NCBI RefSeq assembly: GCF_001677475.2
Contig: NZ_CP015229.1
Source of the DNA: Escherichia coli
Lineage (GTDB): Bacteria; Pseudomonadota; Gammaproteobacteria; Enterobacterales; Enterobacteriaceae
Length of the DNA: 64,000 nt
Direction: 5' to 3' (one strand)
Position numbers and translations under genes: made by a program. The notes beneath the pieces are model-generated. The model was not told the DNA's origin and did no database searches. It saw only the letters and a list, made by a program, of their open reading frames with translations. Below are positions 3,199-59,429 of this stretch, piece after piece (the stretch's first letter is position 1; each line of letters opens with the position of its first letter).

Positions 3199-4536
3199 TT
3201 AATCTTTGCTTATTGGTGCATCTAAGGGATACGGGTTTTTATGCAGCCTGTTGTAATTCAGCGCATACATGGCGGTGATGACCATCAGGGTGACAAATGA
3301 CCACATAACCTCTTTCGCCCCGGACCCCACAACGGCCCAAATGCAGTAGAGGAAGGCAATGGTAGTAACAGCCAGATATGCCGGGCGTGCTTTACCAAAG
3401 TGACCGTGGCCGAGCAGCAGTAACGCCGCACAGGTGTAAAGATATGGCACCAGTGTAAAGATGACCGAGACGGAAGAAACCAGACCGAACTCTTTGGTCG
3501 CGTTTGGTGAAATGCTGCTGAGCTGGAAGATGGTCATCAAAATACCGACGATAATCAGCCCCGCCACTGGCGTACCCGCTTTATTTACACGGGCAAAAAT
3601 CGGTGGGAACAGTCCGTCATCGGCAGCGGCTTTCGCCGTTTGACCCGCCAGCAATGTCCAGCCGCCCAGTGAACCTAAGCAACCCGCAGCTGCGCAGAAG
3701 GAAACAATGGCCCCGGCGGTGTCACCCAACGCCATCCGTGCGGCATCACCGAATGGCGAGGCAGAAACGCGCAGTGCGGCATTAGGGATCATCCCCATAA
3801 TCGCGGTGGTGGAGAGTACATAGCAAACGGCGGCAATCAATACCCCACCAATGGTGGCGATAGGGACATTGCGTTTCGGGTTTTTCACCACACCTGCGGC
3901 AACGGAGGCACTTTCCACACCGATGAACGACCACAGCGTAACGTTAAGGGTACTTTGAATTGCACCGAAGGTGCCCAGGCCGCTGACGTTCCATGCCGCC
4001 ATATAGGTTTCACCACGGAACCAGAACCAGCCAAATACGGCAATCCCGACGATGGGGATCAGCGCCAGCACGGTGGCAACGGCCTGCACGCGGGTGATCA
4101 TTTTCGGACCGACAATGTTCAGCAGGACGAAGATCCACAGCACCACGACGCAGGTGATGGTTAATACCAGTGGATCTTTCAGAATCGGGAAGAAGTAACT
4201 TAAATATCCTACGCCAATGACCACCATGGCGATATTGCCGATCCAGCAGGCCAGCCAGTAGAGGACGTTGGTTTGATAACCGAGAAACGGGCCAAAGCAG
4301 CGGCGGGCGTAAGCGTAAGAACCACCAGGACTTGGGTCGAGGAACGACATTTTGGCGTATACCATCGAGAGCCCCAGCGCACCGATAATCGTCACCAACC
4401 ATCCATAAATGGCAATCCCGCCAGTGGAGGCCAGGTTTGCAGGTAACAGAAAAACACCTGACCCCATAATATTCCCCGACACCATCAGGGTGACGGGGAT
4501 TAAGCCCACTTTGTGAGCATCAGCATCCGAAGACAT
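3199..4536 (-). CDS. adiC: Arginine:agmatine antiporter AdiC, 445 aa
   Basis: Protein [36 protein letters not shown]... recognised as AdiC (APC family). Confidence 0.95.
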
Positions 4537-13185: not shown

Positions 13186-14832
13186 TTACTTAGTGCAGTT
13201 CGCGCACTGTTTGTTGACGATTTGCTGGAAGAAGTCGTTACCTTTGTCATCGACCAGGATAAACGCCGGGAAATCTTCTACTTCGATTTTCCAGATAGCT
13301 TCCATACCCAGCTCCGGATAAGCGACGCATTCAAGATGCTTGATGCTCTGCTGCGCCAGTACCGCCGCCGGACCGCCGATACTACCGAGGTAGAAGCCGC
13401 CGTGTTTATGACACGCGTCGGTAACCTGCTGACTGCGGTTACCTTTCGCCAGCATGATCATGCTGCCGCCGTGGGATTGCAGCAGATCCACGTAGGAGTC
13501 CATACGACCTGCGGTGGTTGGGCCAAGTGAACCTGATGGATAACCGGCAGGGGTTTTCGCCGGACCCGCGTAGTAGATCGGGTGATCTTTGATGTACTGC
13601 GGCAGTTCTTTACCGGCGTCAATCAGCTCTTTCAGCTTGGCGTGTGCAATATCTCGACCCACGATAATGGTGCCGGTGAGCGACAAGCGGGTGGATACCG
13701 GGTATTGCGAAAGCTGGGCGAGGATCTCTTTCATCGGGCGGTTAAGGTCGACTTTCACCGCTTCGCCTTCACCGGCCTGACGCAGTTCTTGTGGAATGTA
13801 CTGGCCTGGATTGTGTTCCAGTTTTTCGATCCAGATACCTTCGCGGTTGATTTTCGCTTTAATGTTACGGTCAGCGGAGCAGGAGACGCCCATGCCTACC
13901 GGGCAGGATGCACCGTGACGCGGCAGACGGATAACGCGAATGTCGTGCGCGAAGTATTTACCACCAAACTGCGCGCCAAGACCGAGTTTCTGGGCCTCTT
14001 CCAGCAGTTCCTGTTCCAGCTGGACATCGCGGAACGCCTGACCATGTTCGTTCCCTTCCGTCGGCAGTTCATCATAATAGTGAGTGCTTGCTAACTTGAC
14101 GGTTTTCAGGTTGGTTTCCGCAGACGTACCGCCAATCACAAACGCGATATGGTACGGCGGGCAGGCTGCAGTACCGAGGGTACGCATTTTCTCGACGAGG
14201 AAGTTTTTCAGTTTGCCGGGCGTCAGCAGGGCTTTGGTTTCCTGGTAGAGATACGTTTTGTTGGCAGAGCCGCCGCCTTTAGCGACACAGAGGAATTTGT
14301 ACTCATCGCCATCTACCGCGTACAGGTCGATTTGCGCAGGCAGGTTCGTGCCGGTGTTGACCTCTTTATACATGTCCAGCGGCGCGTTCTGTGAATAGCG
14401 CAGGTTATCTTCGATATAGGTGTTATAGACGCCTTTCGACAGCGCTTCTTCATCACCGCCACCGGTCCACACGCGCTGACCTTTTTTACCGACGATGATT
14501 GCGGTGCCGGTATCCTGGCAGGTCGGCAGCACGCCTTTGGCGGCGATTTCGGAGTTTCTTAAGAATTGCAGCGCCACGTACTTGTCGTTTTCGCTGGCTT
14601 CTGGATCGTGAAGAATAGCCGCGACCTGTTTCTGGTGGGCCGGGCGGAGCATGAAAGAAGCGTCGTGAAAGGCTTGCTGCGCCAGCAGGGTCAGGGCTTC
14701 TGGTTCCACTTTCAGAATGGTTTCGCCGTCGAAGTCGGCAACGCTAACGTAATCGGAAGTGAGTAGATAGTATTCGGTATTGTCTTTCCCCATCGGGAAA
14801 GGTGCCTGGTAGATAAAGGGTTTGTTTGACAT
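13186..14832 (-). CDS. fumB: Class I (Fe-S) fumarate hydratase FumB, 548 aa
   Basis: Protein [30 protein letters not shown]... recognised as FumB. Confidence 0.95.
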
Positions 14833-16250: not shown

Positions 16251-16819
16251 GTGTGAACCCTCGCGATAATCCTATTTAAATTTTTGCTGAATAGATCACA
16301 GTCACGTTCTGTTTTGTATGAACTGTTTTCAGAGCCTGACTAAATATCCGTTTGGTCGTTACCGGCTTTAGCAAATACCTCACAGTGAATATTGGCTGAT
16401 TAAAGCAGCGGCAAATTTATGCACTGTGATAAGCGGCTTTTTCAGAGAGAATGACTCTCTGGCGATGGGTTTATAGTTTGTACTGCGCAGATGTTAATGT
16501 TTTGTTTGCTTCTATCTTATTGATATTTATTGGTCTATTTTTTTTCTCAGGGCAGATGTCATTAGGTTTATAGATTAATCTGATCTACCCATTTGTGGGT
16601 AAAAATACACATAATGCGGGTGACATAATAGTTAATTAACTTTTGTTAGCGTTTTGAAATTAAAAACACCGTTCATCTGAAGAGATATTAATTTTTAACG
16701 ATGATAGAGGGATAATTATATTTGATCTGGCACAAGTTTTATTGATTAACGATGTAACTTGTGCCAGGGGTATTTTGCATTACGGTAATAATTATTACTT
16801 ACAGATAACCAGCGATCCG

Positions 16820-17539
16820 TTATTGGCAATATTGTTTCAGTAGTGAGTAGTGTTCTGCCTGAATACGGTAACGGTAAACCGGACGCCCCGTGACGCCATA
16901 ATGGATACTGGTGAACAAGATGTGGCAGTTGACCAGCCAGATAAGGTATTTACGGCAGGAAACACGCGAGATGTTAACCTCGTTAGCCAGCTCGTCGGTT
17001 GAAAACTCATAGTCCTGATGCGCGTCAATCCACTGGCACAGCGTGCGTAACGTCTGCGGCGTTAAGCCTTTTGGCAAGCGACGAGGATCCTGCTCGTTGG
17101 AGCTGCTGCCGTGGATTAGCTGATCAAGCTCGGCCTGGTCATAATACTGATGTTTTTCCAGCGCCATTTTCTTTTGCCGCCAGCCGGTGAGCGCCTCTTC
17201 AAAGCGGGAAGCCTGGAAGGGTTTGATCAGGTAATCCACGACACCGTAATGCAGCGAATCTTTAATGGTTGCCGCATCGGCTGCGGAGGAGATGACAATC
17301 ACATCACTTTTGCAACGCGCGTTATGCAGGACAGGCAGTAAATCGAGCCCGTTCTCTTTTTGCATATAGATATCGAGCAATATCAGGTCGATAGGCGTAT
17401 CGCTATTGAAGATAATCTCTTTGGCTTTCTCCAGCGTCGAGGCTGTTCCACAGCATTGAAAGCCTGGGATTTGTGCTACGTATCGGCGATTCAGCTCCGC
17501 GACCATTGCGTCGTCATCGATAATTAATACATTGATCAT
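16820..17539 (-). CDS. dcuR: C4-dicarboxylate response regulator DcuR, 239 aa
   Basis: Protein MINVLIIDDDAMVAELNRRYVAQIPGF... recognised as DcuR; start overlaps dcuS stop by 4 nt. Confidence 0.95.
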   Translation of the reverse strand: MINVLIIDDDAMVAELNRRYVAQIPGFQCCGTASTLEKAKEIIFNSDTPIDLILLDIYMQKENGLDLLPVLHNARCKSDVIVISSAADAATIKDSLHYGVVDYLIKPFQASRFEEALTGWRQKKMALEKHQYYDQAELDQLIHGSSSNEQDPRRLPKGLTPQTLRTLCQWIDAHQDYEFSTDELANEVNISRVSCRKYLIWLVNCHILFTSIHYGVTGRPVYRYRIQAEHYSLLKQYCQ

Positions 17540-19167
17540 CTGTTCGACCTCTCCCCGTCCCAGGGTATCTGGACAAAAAATTGTGTGAAAATCCCGGGTT
17601 CCGATTCCACGGCGATGCTGCCGCCGAGATTTTCTACCTGTTGTTTGACAAGTGCTAAACCGACGCCTCGCTCGCTTCCTTTTGTCGAGACACCTTTGTC
17701 AAAAATGTGATCGATTTTGTCGGGTGCGATCCCCGGTCCATCATCGTTAACTTCACAGTGCAGCCAGCCGTGACGGTAGTGCAATGTTACGCTAATTTCG
17801 CCACCGGGTTCCGGCCCTAATGCTTCCAGCGCGTTTTCTATCAGATTTCCCAACGTGGTAATCAGCGTCGCGACCTGGTCCTCACTGCCGCTGTCTGGCA
17901 ACTGGCTTTCACTGTTTAAAATCAGCGTATGGCCTAAATCGGTCGCGCGGTTAATCTTGCTGATTAAAAAACCAGCGATAACCGGAGATTTGATCTTACC
18001 CAGCAGAGAGCCAATCTCTTCCTGATAGTTATTGGCTGTTTTGAGAATGTAATCTTCCAACTGCTTATAACTCTTCAGATGCAATAATCCGAGAATCACG
18101 TGCAATTTATTCATAAATTCGTGGGATCGTTCACGAAGTGCGTCAGCATAGTTGACCAGACCGTCGAGTCGCTGCATCAGTTTACGTACTTCAGTTTTGT
18201 CCCTGAAGGTTGAAATGGCACCGATGATAACGCCATTACTGCGCACCGGAACGGTGTTGATCAGTAATAGCCGGTCTTTAATCGTAATCTCTTCGTCGCG
18301 GCGCGGCGTACCGTCGCGTAACACTTCCGAGACATCTACTACCTGTGACCACGAGTGGCTTAGCGTCGACAGTTTCTCATCGTCCTGCGACTTACGGTAA
18401 TTCAGCAATTCTTGTGCGGCATCGTTGATCAGCGTGACTTCACCGCGATCGTCCACGGCAACGACGCCTTCTTTGATAGACTGCAACATGGCCTGGCGCT
18501 GCTCAAACAGCGTGGAGATTTCGTAGGGTTCCAGGCCAAAAAGAATTTTTTTCAGTACTTTAACCAGAATGCAGGTGCCAATCAGTCCGACCAGCATGCC
18601 AAATAATACCGACCAGATAATGCTCCAGCGACTGTCATTGATCTGTTGGGTCACGCGGCTTAACTCAAGGCCGATCGCCACCACGCCAATTTGTTTATGA
18701 TTTTCATCGTAGATGGGGGTAAATACGCGTAAAGCCTGCGCCAGAAAACCGCGATTGATAGCGACATTTTCTTCGCCATTCAGCGCTTTAAGGATGTCAT
18801 CACCTTTAAATGGCTGACCAATACGCTGGGCTTCAGGATGCGAGTAGCGAAGACTTTGCATATCGGTAACGACAATAAATAGCAGATCGTTGCGTTTGCG
18901 CACGGCTTCCGCGATGGCCTGGATGCCGCTCTCCTGCGGTTTTTTCTGCAAGCCCTGACGGATTTCCGGCGAGTCGGCGAGGGTTCGCGCCACTGCCAGT
19001 GCCTTGTTGGCTAGCCCGTCTCGCGTCATATCACTGATTTGCGAGAAGTAAATCAGATGCACCACCAATAGTACCGAGAACAGTACCGCGCTGACCATTA
19101 AGATCACAGTGGTACTCAATTTCATCGGACGTTTGCGTAACATGCGGTAGGGCAATGAATGTCTCAT
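17536..19167 (-). CDS. dcuS: C4-dicarboxylate sensor histidine kinase DcuS, 543 aa
   Basis: Protein MRHSLPYRMLRKRPMKLSTTVILMVSAVLF... recognised as DcuS. Confidence 0.95.
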   Translation of the reverse strand: MRHSLPYRMLRKRPMKLSTTVILMVSAVLFSVLLVVHLIYFSQISDMTRDGLANKALAVARTLADSPEIRQGLQKKPQESGIQAIAEAVRKRNDLLFIVVTDMQSLRYSHPEAQRIGQPFKGDDILKALNGEENVAINRGFLAQALRVFTPIYDENHKQIGVVAIGLELSRVTQQINDSRWSIIWSVLFGMLVGLIGTCILVKVLKKILFGLEPYEISTLFEQRQAMLQSIKEGVVAVDDRGEVTLINDAAQELLNYRKSQDDEKLSTLSHSWSQVVDVSEVLRDGTPRRDEEITIKDRLLLINTVPVRSNGVIIGAISTFRDKTEVRKLMQRLDGLVNYADALRERSHEFMNKLHVILGLLHLKSYKQLEDYILKTANNYQEEIGSLLGKIKSPVIAGFLISKINRATDLGHTLILNSESQLPDSGSEDQVATLITTLGNLIENALEALGPEPGGEISVTLHYRHGWLHCEVNDDGPGIAPDKIDHIFDKGVSTKGSERGVGLALVKQQVENLGGSIAVESEPGIFTQFFVQIPWDGERSNR

Positions 19168-40668: not shown

Positions 40669-40717
40669 TGTGATCCAGAGGCTGGATACTTCCAGCCTCG
40701 TCGTAAAACAGATGAGA

Positions 40718-41587
40718 TTATTTCGCCTGTGGTGCAGTTTTGCTGGTGGATTGAACACGTAAGTGATGCAGCGCGCGTAAGCATTGATCCTGGGTTAGCG
40801 GTTGGGCGTTATTTGCCGCTACGGTGCGAACATAGACCTGACATGGCACACCCGCGAGTTTTTTCAGTCGGGGGCTGAAATCAAGCATTCGGCGAGTGAT
40901 CGCCTCCACTTCTTTACCCGGCGTTGCTTCACGCGTTTTCACCACTGCGCCGCTAAATTGTTCTTTGCCACTTTCATCTTTAAAGCGGTAAAGCACCGCC
41001 AGATAATGGTTGAACAAGTTATGTTTCCATTCCGGTTGGGAATAGGTGTCATATTCCAGATTGCCATTGTCCTGGCAGTCAACATCGTATAACGGTAGGA
41101 AATCTAACAGTGAGGTAATACGTAATGCCAGTTCACGCATTTCCGCATTGTTAATTGCATGAATGATTGCTCGCGCCAGCATTTCAATCTGCAATTCATT
41201 GATGACTAACTCACATTTGCTACCGTCATGTAGCGTTAATACGAAGGTAAGATTTTCGCCCTGATTATCGGTAAGTTCCAGCGTGTTAACCCGACGATTA
41301 ATATCGGCATTTTTAAGCTCATCAACCAGAATTTCTGGGATATTTTCTGCCATTTTCTTAATGACTTTATCGCGAGCTTGCTCATACTGAAGGCGTGCAG
41401 CAGCATCCAGTTTATGCTTTTGATGCAGACGGCTTTCCAGCGCAATCAGAAGGTCGCGCAGTTCCATGACAGACAGAAAGAACAACGATTCTTTATTGCG
41501 AGGCTCTTTAATTTTCAGCGCCAGTGCAATGAAATTATTACTCTTGCGAATAACACCGGTATTAACACCCTTGATGCTTATGGCCAT
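40718..41587 (-). CDS. yjeJ: Uncharacterised protein YjeJ, 289 aa
   Basis: Protein MAISIKGVNTGVIRKSNNFIALALKIKEPRNKESLFFLSV... recognised as YjeJ; coding DNA is noticeably AT-rich relative to its neighbours. Confidence 0.85.
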   Translation of the reverse strand: MAISIKGVNTGVIRKSNNFIALALKIKEPRNKESLFFLSVMELRDLLIALESRLHQKHKLDAAARLQYEQARDKVIKKMAENIPEILVDELKNADINRRVNTLELTDNQGENLTFVLTLHDGSKCELVINELQIEMLARAIIHAINNAEMRELALRITSLLDFLPLYDVDCQDNGNLEYDTYSQPEWKHNLFNHYLAVLYRFKDESGKEQFSGAVVKTREATPGKEVEAITRRMLDFSPRLKKLAGVPCQVYVRTVAANNAQPLTQDQCLRALHHLRVQSTSKTAPQAK

Positions 41588-41821
41588 GTAGGTTCTCCCT
41601 AACCATTTCTCAATTAAATAATTAATTTTAATTTATAAGCCAGATAAATGGGCTTGGTAGTAATAGTTGTTAAAATAACATAAATAGCCGTGCTCACTCT
41701 ATATAAACAGAAAAGAAAGGTTAATTATTGGTGTTGGTTATATAAAAAGTAATAACAGCAATGTATATGAATAATTAAAGGTTATGCACCGTGCAAAGAT
41801 TAAACTTCCCTGTTTAATCAG

Positions 41822-49511: not shown

Positions 49512-49643
49512 GACATTCCTCCAGATTGTTTTTATCCCACAGCCCCGTACTTCAGGGTAAGTGCCTGAAAGTTACGGTCTGCGAACGCTATTCCACTGCT
49601 CCTTTATAGGTACAACAGTATAGTCTGATGGATAAGTCTGAAA

Positions 49644-51031: not shown

Positions 51032-52534
51032 ATGCCTCACACGATAAAAAAGATGAGTCTGATAGGACTCATATTGATGATCTTTACTTCCGTATTTGGA
51101 TTTGCCAATAGCCCATCGGCTTATTACTTAATGGGTTATAGTGCGATTCCCTTTTATATATTTTCTGCATTGTTATTCTTTATTCCATTCGCCTTAATGA
51201 TGGCTGAAATGGGCGCTGCGTATCGCAAAGAAGAAGGAGGTATCTATTCCTGGATGAATAATAGTGTCGGACCACGTTTTGCCTTCATTGGTACGTTTAT
51301 GTGGTTTTCCTCTTATATCATCTGGATGGTGAGCACCTCCGCTAAAGTTTGGGTACCGTTCTCAACATTTCTCTACGGTAGCGACATGACCCAGCACTGG
51401 CGTATTGCCGGACTGGAACCTACGCAGGTGGTTGGTCTGCTGGCAGTGGCATGGATGATTCTGGTCACCGTCGTTGCTTCAAAAGGGATTAATAAAATTG
51501 CCCGCATTACTGCGGTGGGCGGTATTGCAGTAATGTGCCTGAATTTAGTATTACTGTTAGTAAGCATTACTATTTTGTTATTAAATGGTGGGCATTTCGC
51601 GCAGGATATTAATTTCCTGACATCACCGAACCCAGGATATCAATCCGGTCTGGCGATGCTATCGTTTGTGGTATTTGCCATTTTTGCCTATGGCGGAATT
51701 GAAGCGGTTGGTGGTCTGGTCGATAAAACGGAAAATCCAGAAAAGAACTTTGCCAAAGGTATTGTTTTTGCCGCTATTGTTATTTCAATCGGTTATTCGC
51801 TGGCAATATTTTTATGGGGCGTCAGCACAAACTGGCAGCAGGTATTAAGTAATGGTTCCGTTAACCTCGGCAATATTACCTATGTGCTGATGAAGAGCCT
51901 CGGGATGACGCTGGGTAACGCACTGCATTTGTCACCTGAAGCGTCATTGTCGCTGGGCGTATGGTTTGCGCGTATTACCGGACTTTCGATGTTCCTCGCT
52001 TATACCGGTGCGTTCTTTACGCTTTGCTATTCACCGCTGAAAGCCATCATCCAGGGGACGCCGAAAGCGTTGTGGCCGGAACCGATGACGCGCCTGAATG
52101 CGATGGGGATGCCGTCTATCGCCATGTGGATGCAGTGCGGGTTGGTTACTGTCTTCATCCTGCTGGTTTCGTTTGGTGGCGGTACCGCATCGGCGTTCTT
52201 TAACAAGCTGACGCTGATGGCGAACGTGTCTATGACGCTTCCTTACCTGTTCCTCGCGCTGGCTTTCCCATTCTTTAAAGCACGTCAGGATCTCGACAGA
52301 CCATTTGTGATTTTCAAAACGCGTATGTCGGCAATGATTGCGACGGTGGTTGTCGTTCTGGTGGTGACATTTGCGAACATCTTCACCATCATTCAGCCTG
52401 TGGTTGAAGCCGGAGACTGGGACAGCACATTGTGGATGATTGGCGGCCCTGTCTTCTTCTCGCTGTTAGCGATGGCGATATACCAGAACTATTGCAGTCG
52501 CATGGCGAATAAACCTGAGTTAGCTCTCGACTGA
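51032..52534 (+). CDS. yjeM: Putative APC-superfamily transporter YjeM, about 500 aa
   Basis: ORF 50990..52534 is a polytopic membrane protein recognised as YjeM; start assigned to ATG 51032 (AAGGATGG SD); in-frame alternatives are GTG 50990 and ATG 51053. Confidence 0.8.
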   Translation: MPHTIKKMSLIGLILMIFTSVFGFANSPSAYYLMGYSAIPFYIFSALLFFIPFALMMAEMGAAYRKEEGGIYSWMNNSVGPRFAFIGTFMWFSSYIIWMVSTSAKVWVPFSTFLYGSDMTQHWRIAGLEPTQVVGLLAVAWMILVTVVASKGINKIARITAVGGIAVMCLNLVLLLVSITILLLNGGHFAQDINFLTSPNPGYQSGLAMLSFVVFAIFAYGGIEAVGGLVDKTENPEKNFAKGIVFAAIVISIGYSLAIFLWGVSTNWQQVLSNGSVNLGNITYVLMKSLGMTLGNALHLSPEASLSLGVWFARITGLSMFLAYTGAFFTLCYSPLKAIIQGTPKALWPEPMTRLNAMGMPSIAMWMQCGLVTVFILLVSFGGGTASAFFNKLTLMANVSMTLPYLFLALAFPFFKARQDLDRPFVIFKTRMSAMIATVVVVLVVTFANIFTIIQPVVEAGDWDSTLWMIGGPVFFSLLAMAIYQNYCSRMANKPELALD

Positions 52535-52684
52535 TCATATGAAATCCTGCAACTCATCGTCTCTCCGGCGATGAGTTGTCAGGAAGTAATGCGTATGGAT
52601 GATACTCTCCAGGGCCGGTGATAACTGAAGATGATGTTAAGCTGCTAAATGAGCCACGTTGACATCATTTGGCAGCTTCATGCA

Positions 52685-58999: not shown

Positions 59000-59075
<76 letters not shown>

Positions 59076-59232
59076 AAATTTGAAAAGTGCTGCAAAGCAC
59101 AGACCACCCAATCGCAGTATTTCGAATTGCGACAAGGCGGCAACTGAACGAATCCTTGGGAGCTTACAAAAGTAAGTGACTAAGGTGAGTGAAGGCAGCC
59201 AAGGCAGTAGCGGTTCGAAAGACGAAGATTAA

Positions 59233-59308
<76 letters not shown>

Positions 59309-59343
59309 AAATTTGAAGGTGCTGTAAAGCACAGACCACCCAA

Positions 59344-59419
<76 letters not shown>

Positions 59420-59429
59420 AATTCTTCTC

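Follow-up and report, generated by a model that had tools for sequence, protein, structure and literature searches.

The dcuR-dcuB gap of Escherichia coli is the known dcuB promoter region, and its probable long leader may mask the dcuB Shine-Dalgarno sequence

The window analyzed here is a stretch of 64,000 nucleotides of Escherichia coli DNA (NCBI RefSeq assembly GCF_001677475.2, contig NZ_CP015229.1). It was found to be collinear with positions 4332496..4397239 of E. coli K-12 MG1655 at an identity of ~98.5%; it is not K-12 itself, and no complete RefSeq E. coli exceeds 99.0% identity to it. The region of interest is the gap between dcuR and dcuB (16251..16819, 569 bp), which is flanked by these two genes on the same strand, the minus strand of the ORF list, with fumB downstream and dcuS upstream (Table 1). 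Locus, flanking genes, and orientation are those of the K-12 dcuB promoter region (dcuBp in EcoCyc/RegulonDB), and the sequences are 98% identical. The gap is therefore the already known, well-studied dcuB promoter region, and both the FNR position at -132.5 and the 5' end at -20 reported for K-12 map onto it. Eleven differences from K-12 were counted over 569/570 bp, none of them in the FNR, DcuR, -10, NarL, anti-Shine-Dalgarno, or Shine-Dalgarno elements described below. Among them are a leader indel of one base (after 16543), three substitutions within the loop of the stem-loop that follows dcuR, and one within the loop of the leader hairpin H2.

Table 1. Positions of genes and of observed, published, or predicted elements in and around the dcuR-dcuB gap, in window coordinates
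Feature	Position	Strand	Basis or remark
dcuS	17536..19167	-	ORF list; NCBIfam
dcuR CDS, response regulator encoded upstream, 239 aa	16820..17539	-	ORF list; NCBIfam DcuR equivalog, 504 bits
Conserved DNA element, GTTAT (16809-16805) plus palindrome GTAATAATTATTAC (16798-16785)	16785..16809	.	Kept in four genera; palindrome I3
12-bp stem-loop CUGGCACAAGUU-N17-AACUUGUGCCAG, Escherichia-specific	16727..16767	-	Inverted repeat I1; begins 54 nt past the dcuR stop
Predicted FNR site TTGATCTGGCACAA	16722..16735	.	8/10 consensus positions; centre at -132.5 from start 16596
Candidate DcuR-P block TGTTTTTAATTTCAAAACGCTAACAAAAGTTAATTAACTATTAT, 44 bp (~45)	16625..16668	-	-72 to -29; most conserved stretch of the gap
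Core promoter block TGTGTATTTTTA with -10 hexamer TATTTT (16607-16602)	16600..16611	-	Invariant in all aligned loci
Candidate NarL 7-2-7 inverted heptamers TACCCAT-TT-GTGGGTA	16586..16601	.	1 mismatch; spans -5 to +11
Inferred start of the DcuR-dependent dcuB promoter	16596	-	K-12 position -347; 346-nt leader
dcuB mRNA 5' leader	16251..16595	-	Inferred from start 16596; ends at Shine-Dalgarno GAGGG
Anti-Shine-Dalgarno strand AACCC-A-UCGC, 5' strand of predicted helix H1	16462..16471	-	Invariant CCCAUCGCC at 16469-16461
Leader hairpin H2, CAGAGAG-UCAUU-CUCUCUG, 7 bp	16443..16461	-	Immediately inside H1; RNAalifold, 27 loci
CRP-like TGTGATCTATTCAGCA, inside the leader	16285..16300	-	7/10 positions; TGTGATC core kept in most loci
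Published 5' end, -20 from ATG (Golby 1998 'p1')	16270	-	Position verified in K-12
GCGAGGGUU, Shine-Dalgarno GAGGG (16262-16258) plus flanks, 3' strand of predicted H1	16256..16264	-	GAGGG invariant
dcuB CDS, regulated gene, 446 aa	14910..16250	-	ORF list; NCBIfam anaerobic C4-dicarboxylate transporter, 761 bits; RefSeq annotation of matching E. coli genomes
fumB	13186..14832	-	ORF list; NCBIfam

An earlier note, made from the letters alone, had singled out the gap as 569 bp of non-coding DNA between dcuR and dcuB, among the longest non-coding stretches and strongly AT-rich, especially at 16500..16800. The length and the non-coding character were borne out by the ORF list. With respect to rank, the 570-bp gap of K-12 tops the 30 annotated gaps of at least 100 bp in the equivalent stretch, the next longest being 394 and 364 bp. 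The GC content was 0.36 for the gap and 0.285 to 0.29 for 16500-16800, the values for all gaps and for the region being 0.41 and 0.50, respectively. The AT-richness is thus real, yet six other regulatory gaps in the stretch are equally or more AT-rich (GC 0.31 to 0.36). A GC content of 0.29 at 16500-16800, together with the recurrent targeting of the gap by insertion sequences in evolution experiments, could be taken to mean that the DNA is a horizontally acquired or mobile remnant silenced by nucleoid proteins. This origin is hardly credible: of 5,426 complete E. coli genomes, 5,408 have the gap and 5,414 were matched by an 851-bp query spanning it, the annotation at the match being dcuB and dcuR in every case, the gap is syntenic across five genera with its conserved blocks in fixed order, and no repeat families or transposon ends were found in it.

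To place the gap in its wider context, DcuB was scanned for in one genome per species, giving 80 loci. Only in 25 of these was dcuB directly downstream of dcuR, namely in Escherichia, Salmonella, Citrobacter, Trabulsiella, and Intestinirhabdus. The dcuR-dcuB gap of these 25 species measured 552 to 910 bp, with a GC content of 0.31 to 0.39 and Intestinirhabdus (0.45) as the exception. Klebsiella, Proteus, Serratia, and others carry their dcuB homologue at a different locus. Outside the dcuSR-dcuB clade the upstream regions are unrelated, so the comparison is confined to that clade and does not extend to Klebsiella, Proteus, and Serratia. Eighteen syntenic gaps were aligned in the orientation of dcuB, and 27 loci were used for an alignment of the leader; the aligned loci (18 to 27) represent Escherichia, Salmonella, Citrobacter, and Trabulsiella. 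Among the 18 gaps, the near-invariant blocks were GTTAT and AATTATT (the latter within the palindrome GTAATAATTATTAC at 16798-16785), AGATCAAA at 16728-16721, TGTTTTTAATTTC and CGCTAACAAAAGTTAAT at 16668-16635, TGTGTATTTTTA at 16611-16600, CCCATCGCC at 16469-16461, and GAGGG at 16262-16258. It is on such blocks that the FNR, DcuR, -10, and Shine-Dalgarno elements fall.

Closest to dcuR, the palindrome at 16798-16785 yielded no RNA structure (z +0.7), and it is probably bound by a protein. ArcA and Fur were considered as candidates for this site; their consensus sequences matched only at 3 mismatches, and neither assignment is claimed. The stem-loop that follows has a perfect 12-bp stem with a 17-nt loop (-18.3 kcal/mol, z -6.8). 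In this structure, the window and K-12 differ only in the loop. The 3' arm shares bases with the FNR site, and in the 18-locus alignment the 5' arm was missing outside Escherichia. As in intrinsic (Rho-independent) terminators, a stable 12-bp stem stands shortly past a stop codon; however, neither strand has a U tract after the stem, the loop measures 17 nt, and the structure was not called by the terminator scan. Lacking a U tract, it falls outside the definition of an intrinsic terminator, and it is probably a 3' stem-loop of dcuSR.

For FNR, TTGATCTGGCACAA was the sole match in the gap with 2 or fewer mismatches, and the half-site AGATCAAA was invariant in 18 loci. Myers et al. (2013) listed a K-12 FNR ChIP peak for dcuB-fumB at 4,347,259 (U00096.2) and gave the dcuB FNR site as -132.5 from the EcoCyc start (PMC3688515). 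After coordinate conversion, this peak lies 492 bp upstream of the dcuB ATG and 12.5 bp from the TTGATCTGGCACAA motif. The error of such a comparison can be calibrated with the frdA peak in the same table, which lies 34.5 bp from what we take to be the frdA FNR box, a box that scored more than 3 mismatches in the motif scan. Motif, conservation, and published peak together point to an FNR site upstream of the dcuB promoter.

The candidate DcuR-P block contains runs of 13 and 17 near-invariant columns, the palindrome AGTTAATTAACT, and four WWYWAA hexamers. The hexamer motif, (T/A)(A/T)(T/C)(A/T)AA, is non-specific in AT-rich DNA and had 23 matches in the gap. The DcuR-P footprint said to have been described by Janausch and by Abo-Amer in 2004 reportedly extended from -359 to -400/-410 relative to the older '-20' start, and reportedly lay '27 bp upstream' of a new DcuR-responsive start. 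The block at 16625-16668 agrees with either description. Binding of DcuR-P to dcuB promoter DNA (PMC9429925) and DcuSR-dependent induction of dcuB in vivo (PMC10636207) have both been restated in the literature.

The core promoter block carries no recognizable -35 element, and a generic promoter scan gave no minus-strand match in the gap. Both results are expected for an activator-dependent promoter, and the scan is therefore uninformative. More direct evidence came from mutations selected in the mouse gut. Position 4347121 of K-12 (NC_000913.2) has been annotated as -354 from dcuB (PMC5094792), which sets the dcuB ATG at 4,346,767 in NC_000913.2. During evolution of K-12 in the mouse gut, an A->T change at -354, IS2 insertions at -359 and -338, and an IS5 insertion at -118 were selected (PMC5094792 supplements), and anaerobic dcuB mRNA was raised in the sole evolved clone assayed, which carried IS2 at -338. 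In a related gut-evolution study, insertions in the dcuR-dcuB gap occurred in 7 of 14 wild-type mice. The A->T change corresponds to window position 16603, where the reference base matches, and converts the hexamer TATTTT to TATTAT. The IS2 insertion at -359 is immediately 5' of the -10 hexamer, and that at -338 is within the candidate NarL site. With the FNR centre at 16728.5, the published distance of -132.5 leads to a start at 16596, which is 6 nt beyond the TATTTT hexamer in the 3' direction, and we infer that transcription starts near this position. Given this start, the leader makes up ~60% of the gap (346/569 bp). The gap would thus be long because a transcribed leader of this size is added to an extended upstream activating region.

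A different view takes the 5' end at -20 (Golby p1) as the true promoter, with no long leader. The DNA upstream would then be a remote activating region, from which DcuR (at about -360 to -400) and FNR (at about -460) would act by DNA looping. AT-rich DNA could bend in this way, and the first DcuR footprint paper reportedly numbered its site from the -20 start. The 5' end itself has been mapped twice, being listed as the known dcuB start at -20 and re-mapped at -19 (PMC2760140). Nevertheless, no sigma-70-like -10 or -35 element was found near this end on the minus strand, and both the invariant TGTGTATTTTTA and the adaptive mutation by which its -10 is improved are found 330 bp upstream of there. 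Only a start at 16596 is compatible with the published FNR distance of -132.5. Furthermore, IS2 at -338 would sever DcuR and FNR from p1, yet anaerobic expression rose. The comparison and the adaptive mutations therefore favour the far-upstream DcuR-dependent promoter, and the '-20' promoter appears improbable. The -20 5' end could have arisen by initiation or by processing. Like the -19 end, it is located in an AU-rich stretch, and 5 nt separate it from the 3' strand of helix H1 downstream; we speculate that it is a processing site at which the ribosome-binding site is freed.

Over the far-upstream start itself lies the candidate NarL site. Only four 7-2-7 arrangements with at most 1 mismatch were found in the 64 kb, one of them at the frdA promoter (49597-49612), and exact NarL heptamers had a density of 3.5 per kb in the gap versus 0.44 per kb in the window. 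The site was kept in all Escherichia and partly in Citrobacter. On sequence grounds, NarL heptamers for nitrate repression are thus present at dcuBp, and 16586-16601 is a candidate operator in a position suited to repression. The database NarL site of dcuB, 'ATGTTAT', overlaps the start codon, and its removal was proposed by MotifAdjuster; compared with this doubtful site, the 7-2-7 site over the start is the better candidate for nitrate repression. For CRP, by which control of dcuB has been reported, no gap site within 2 mismatches of the consensus was found. The best CRP-like matches, at 16285-16300 and 16369-16384, had 7/10 positions. The right half of TGTGATCTATTCAGCA, at the first of these, is nearer to the consensus in Salmonella and Citrobacter (TATCA), and a 9/10 site, CGTGATAATGATCACA, was found only in Salmonella/Citrobacter, within a leader segment of ~150 nt that is missing from Escherichia. 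The earlier note had expected the gap to integrate several regulators, and conserved elements of the FNR, DcuR, and NarL types at the published places agree with that expectation. The motif scans it had proposed as a check gave FNR and NarL sites; for CRP nothing exceeded 7/10, and the DcuR hexamer was too degenerate to discriminate.

Taken together, the gap is very probably the control region of the dcuB-fumB operon, an FNR/DcuR/NarL promoter with a 346-nt leader. Read along the minus strand, the proposed order would be the end of dcuR, the palindrome, the stem-loop, FNR at -132.5, DcuR-P at -72 to -29, TATTTT, the start, NarL, and the leader. FNR would activate transcription as the anaerobic signal and DcuR-P as the C4-dicarboxylate signal, the DcuR-P site presumably standing in for a -35 element next to the weak -10 TATTTT. 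NarL-P would convey the nitrate signal by blocking the start. The frdABCD promoter, which lies in the same window, has the three regulators in common, being activated by FNR and DcuR and repressed by NarL. It likewise has a 7-2-7-like NarL site over or near the frdA start region (49597-49612) and a listed FNR ChIP peak. The two promoters differ in that FNR is at -45.5 (class II) at frdA and at -132.5 at dcuB, and in that the frdA leader is short, with nothing like the long structured leader of dcuB.

A long gap with several short ORFs and strong leader hairpins might also hide an independent gene, encoding a small RNA or a small protein. For RNA, an Rfam search of the gap at a permissive threshold gave a best E value of 0.28, all hits being chance-level matches to eukaryotic or plastid families and far below the gathering scores. 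The scans found no terminator-like site in the gap, and the sole promoter-like site was weak and on the plus strand. An independent small RNA gene is therefore not indicated by an Rfam match, a terminator, or a minus-strand promoter. Four ORFs of at least 20 aa touch the gap, none of them conserved beyond Escherichia, and the largest change frame or lose their start in K-12. The ATG of the 40-aa plus-strand ORF is made by the window-specific base 16452, and K-12 is without it; a one-base indel turns an 11-aa ORF of the window into a 30-aa ORF in K-12; and two Escherichia species have lost the 35-aa GTG ORF. Frame, start, and stop thus vary within Escherichia, the window and K-12 included, and no ORF in the gap is common to the other genera. 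Small ORFs were accordingly rejected for lack of conservation, and a hidden gene of either kind is very unlikely. The earlier note had seen no convincing ORFs, which holds, and had allowed for an undetected small RNA or small ORF, for which no evidence emerged; it is the leader itself that carries conserved RNA structure.

The leader, like the gap, varies in length between genera (about 310 to 575 nt). Its folding z score was -2.6 in the window and -2.5 in Salmonella diarizonae, where it is 140 nt longer and adopts the same predicted fold. The sole invariant block in the middle of the leader is CCCAUCGCC. The part of it at 16469-16462, the invariant CCCAUCGC, was predicted to pair with the Shine-Dalgarno region (16264-16256), as is the upstream complementary segment of a Shine-Dalgarno-sequestering leader. 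The predicted helix, H1, pairs AACCC-A-UCGC with GCGA-GGGUU. It appeared in the minimum-energy fold and the centroid of both the window and Salmonella leaders, in the partition function, and in the RNAalifold consensus of the 27 loci. H1 would close a domain of ~200 nt, of which hairpin H2 may be the first element.

It is H2 that shows genuine covariation. It was predicted at -10.6 kcal/mol with a z score of -4.8, and 5 of its 7 pairs change on both sides across the 27 loci. When pairs were counted over these loci, ~92% of cells were paired (91.5% for H2), against 30 to 62% in slid controls, and the observed covariation score was reached by 0 of 500 shuffles. H1, in contrast, has an invariant core and so little covariation: 5 of its 9 pairs never vary, and invariant pairs neither support nor oppose a helix. 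Its outer pairs are A-U in Escherichia versus U-A in the other genera. In two Escherichia species, an A->C change is matched by U->G in the partner base. In two Citrobacter loci, H1 is broken by substitutions in the anti-Shine-Dalgarno block that are not compensated.

The accessibility of the Shine-Dalgarno sequence was predicted by partition-function folding. The mean H1 pair probability was at least 0.5 in 25 of the 27 leaders, and in most of them the Shine-Dalgarno sequence was essentially never unpaired. In the window, its unpaired probability was 0.003, versus a median of 0.23 when the upstream leader was shuffled, with 4.7% of the shuffles as low. In silico mutation of the anti-Shine-Dalgarno block raised the value from 0.003 to 0.21, at the level of the shuffled background. 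By the RNAduplex energy of a Shine-Dalgarno probe against the leader, the match was not better than in shuffles (p = 0.26), and complementarity alone is therefore not claimed beyond chance.

The pairing of CCCAUCGC with the Shine-Dalgarno sequence, next to the covarying hairpin H2, suggests translational masking. In this tentative model, the leader would be a conserved cis-regulatory RNA in which CCCAUCGC, 210 nt upstream of the start codon, masks the Shine-Dalgarno sequence, so that the mRNA is poorly translated until the structure is opened; we consider it possible rather than probable. Somewhat unlikely in our judgment is that CCCATCGCC and H2 form instead a site for a small RNA or an RNA-binding protein, a determinant of RNase processing or stability, or a Rho-related element. 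The covariation proves H2 rather than H1, the complementarity of the duplex does not by itself exceed chance, A is abundant and G scarce in the upstream leader, and two species tolerate changes in the CCCATCGCC block. Against this stand the recurrence of H1 in independent folds of leaders differing by more than 140 nt in length and in the consensus fold, the compensatory switching of its terminal pairs between A-U, U-A, and C-G, and the rise in Shine-Dalgarno accessibility upon mutation of the block in silico. A search of the window for a small RNA complementary to CCCAUCGCC gave nothing specific, the annotated aspX included. RyhB was also considered for the dcuB leader and set aside; it acts at the fumB start instead.

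Under masking by H1, translation of the long transcript would be lowered until the helix opens or the RNA is cut at -20. Relief could come from a factor that opens H1, from cleavage at -20, or from removal of the anti-Shine-Dalgarno segment; the gut-adaptive IS5 insertion, which lies between the strands of H1, might remove that segment. A precedent for such an arrangement is the rpoS mRNA, in which the ribosome-binding site is paired to an upstream segment of a long 5' UTR until the small RNAs DsrA, RprA, and ArcZ open the structure. The dcuB leader is likewise several hundred nucleotides long, with an upstream segment complementary to a Shine-Dalgarno sequence that is predicted to be nearly fully paired. 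It differs in that there is no sequence relationship to rpoS and in that its helix is a predicted one of 9 bp with one bulge. To our knowledge, no activating small RNA, protein, or signal is known for the dcuB leader.

Since the gap is a characterized E. coli promoter region, its identification adds little in itself. What the analysis contributes for the promoter is that cross-genus footprinting and published adaptive mutations pin down the functional -10 hexamer and the probable start. The masking leader structure is the only element that may be new, and no description of a dcuB leader structure was found in the searchable literature. The model predicts that changing CCCAUCGC to GGGAUGCG would raise translation and leave transcription unchanged and that compensatory changes in the flanks of GAGGG would restore repression. 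DcuB is both a transporter and the co-sensor of DcuS and matters for gut colonization. If the leader does mask the Shine-Dalgarno sequence, DcuB would also be controlled post-transcriptionally, an extra layer on a textbook anaerobic promoter, and this could explain the repeated selection of insertion sequences in the gap in the mouse gut.

Shortly 3' of dcuR, two elements of differing distribution were identified. The first, a perfect inverted repeat, was found only in Escherichia, and its 3' arm also forms half of the FNR site. Across this repeat, K-12 and the window differ at three positions, all three of which lie in the loop. The second, a palindrome accompanied by a GTTAT motif, was common to four genera, and no RNA fold was found for it.

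Features of the control region, the dcuB homologues and the frdA promoter (window positions unless a locus is named)
Feature	Position	Strand	Description
Inverted repeat CTGGCACAAGTT / AACTTGTGCCAG	16727-16767		Perfect, 12 bp, 17-nt loop; shortly 3' of dcuR
DNA palindrome GTAATAATTATTAC and GTTAT motif	16785-16809		11-35 bp past the dcuR stop
ArcA-type direct repeat TGTTAATGTTTTGTTT	16492-16507	+	1 mismatch to TGTTA-N6-TGTTA
Second leader inverted repeat TCACAGTGAATA / TATGCACTGTGA	16380-16429		Arms 26 nt apart
ORF, 40 aa	16451-16573	+	
Extra leader segment	L008 (Salmonella diarizonae), ~3560-3720		Also in L009-L019; columns 326-520 of A1, the alignment of dcuR-dcuB gaps
NarL 7-2-7-like site TGCTCCTTTATAGGTA	49597-49612		1 mismatch; frdA promoter

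Within the dcuB leader, the second inverted repeat was likewise restricted to Escherichia and makes up a hairpin of the structure predicted for the leader. The ArcA-type repeat also lies in the leader, in a part conserved in Escherichia only. Without the T at 16452, a base specific to the window, there would be no 40-aa ORF: this base gives rise to the ATG start codon, which falls within the leader-hairpin loop. At the matching position K-12 carries A, and the ORF is missing. For the window, the best identity to complete RefSeq E. coli genomes was at most 99.0% over 8 kb (n = 5,426 genomes). The K-12 yjeN-yjeO segment is absent, with 187 bp (52498-52684) in place of 742 bp, and two stretches of ∼140 bp near yjeJ are missing (40679-41818). 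Alignment of the tRNA-Gly (glyV/X/Y) cluster at 59000-59421 with K-12 gave several overlapping registers, suggesting that the repeated tRNA genes differ from those of K-12 in copy number or spacing.

The leaders of Salmonella and Citrobacter contain ∼80 to 180 nt that are missing from Escherichia. This extra segment harbours a conserved hairpin, GTAGCA...TGCTAC, and a CRP-type site close to consensus, CGTGATAATGATCACA, the latter in Salmonella and in the longer of the Citrobacter leaders. Among Klebsiella, Raoultella, Proteus, Serratia, Pectobacterium, and others (loci L030-L083), the closest DcuB homologues, at 87 to 95% identity, were encoded by genes without dcuR adjacency. The ribosome-binding context of these genes differs (CTGGGGGAT), and they carry neither the DcuR block nor the -10 block nor the CCCATCGCC motif.

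Elsewhere in the window, the NarL 7-2-7-like site of the frdA promoter, located shortly downstream of the frdA FNR box, parallels the NarL site over the dcuB start.
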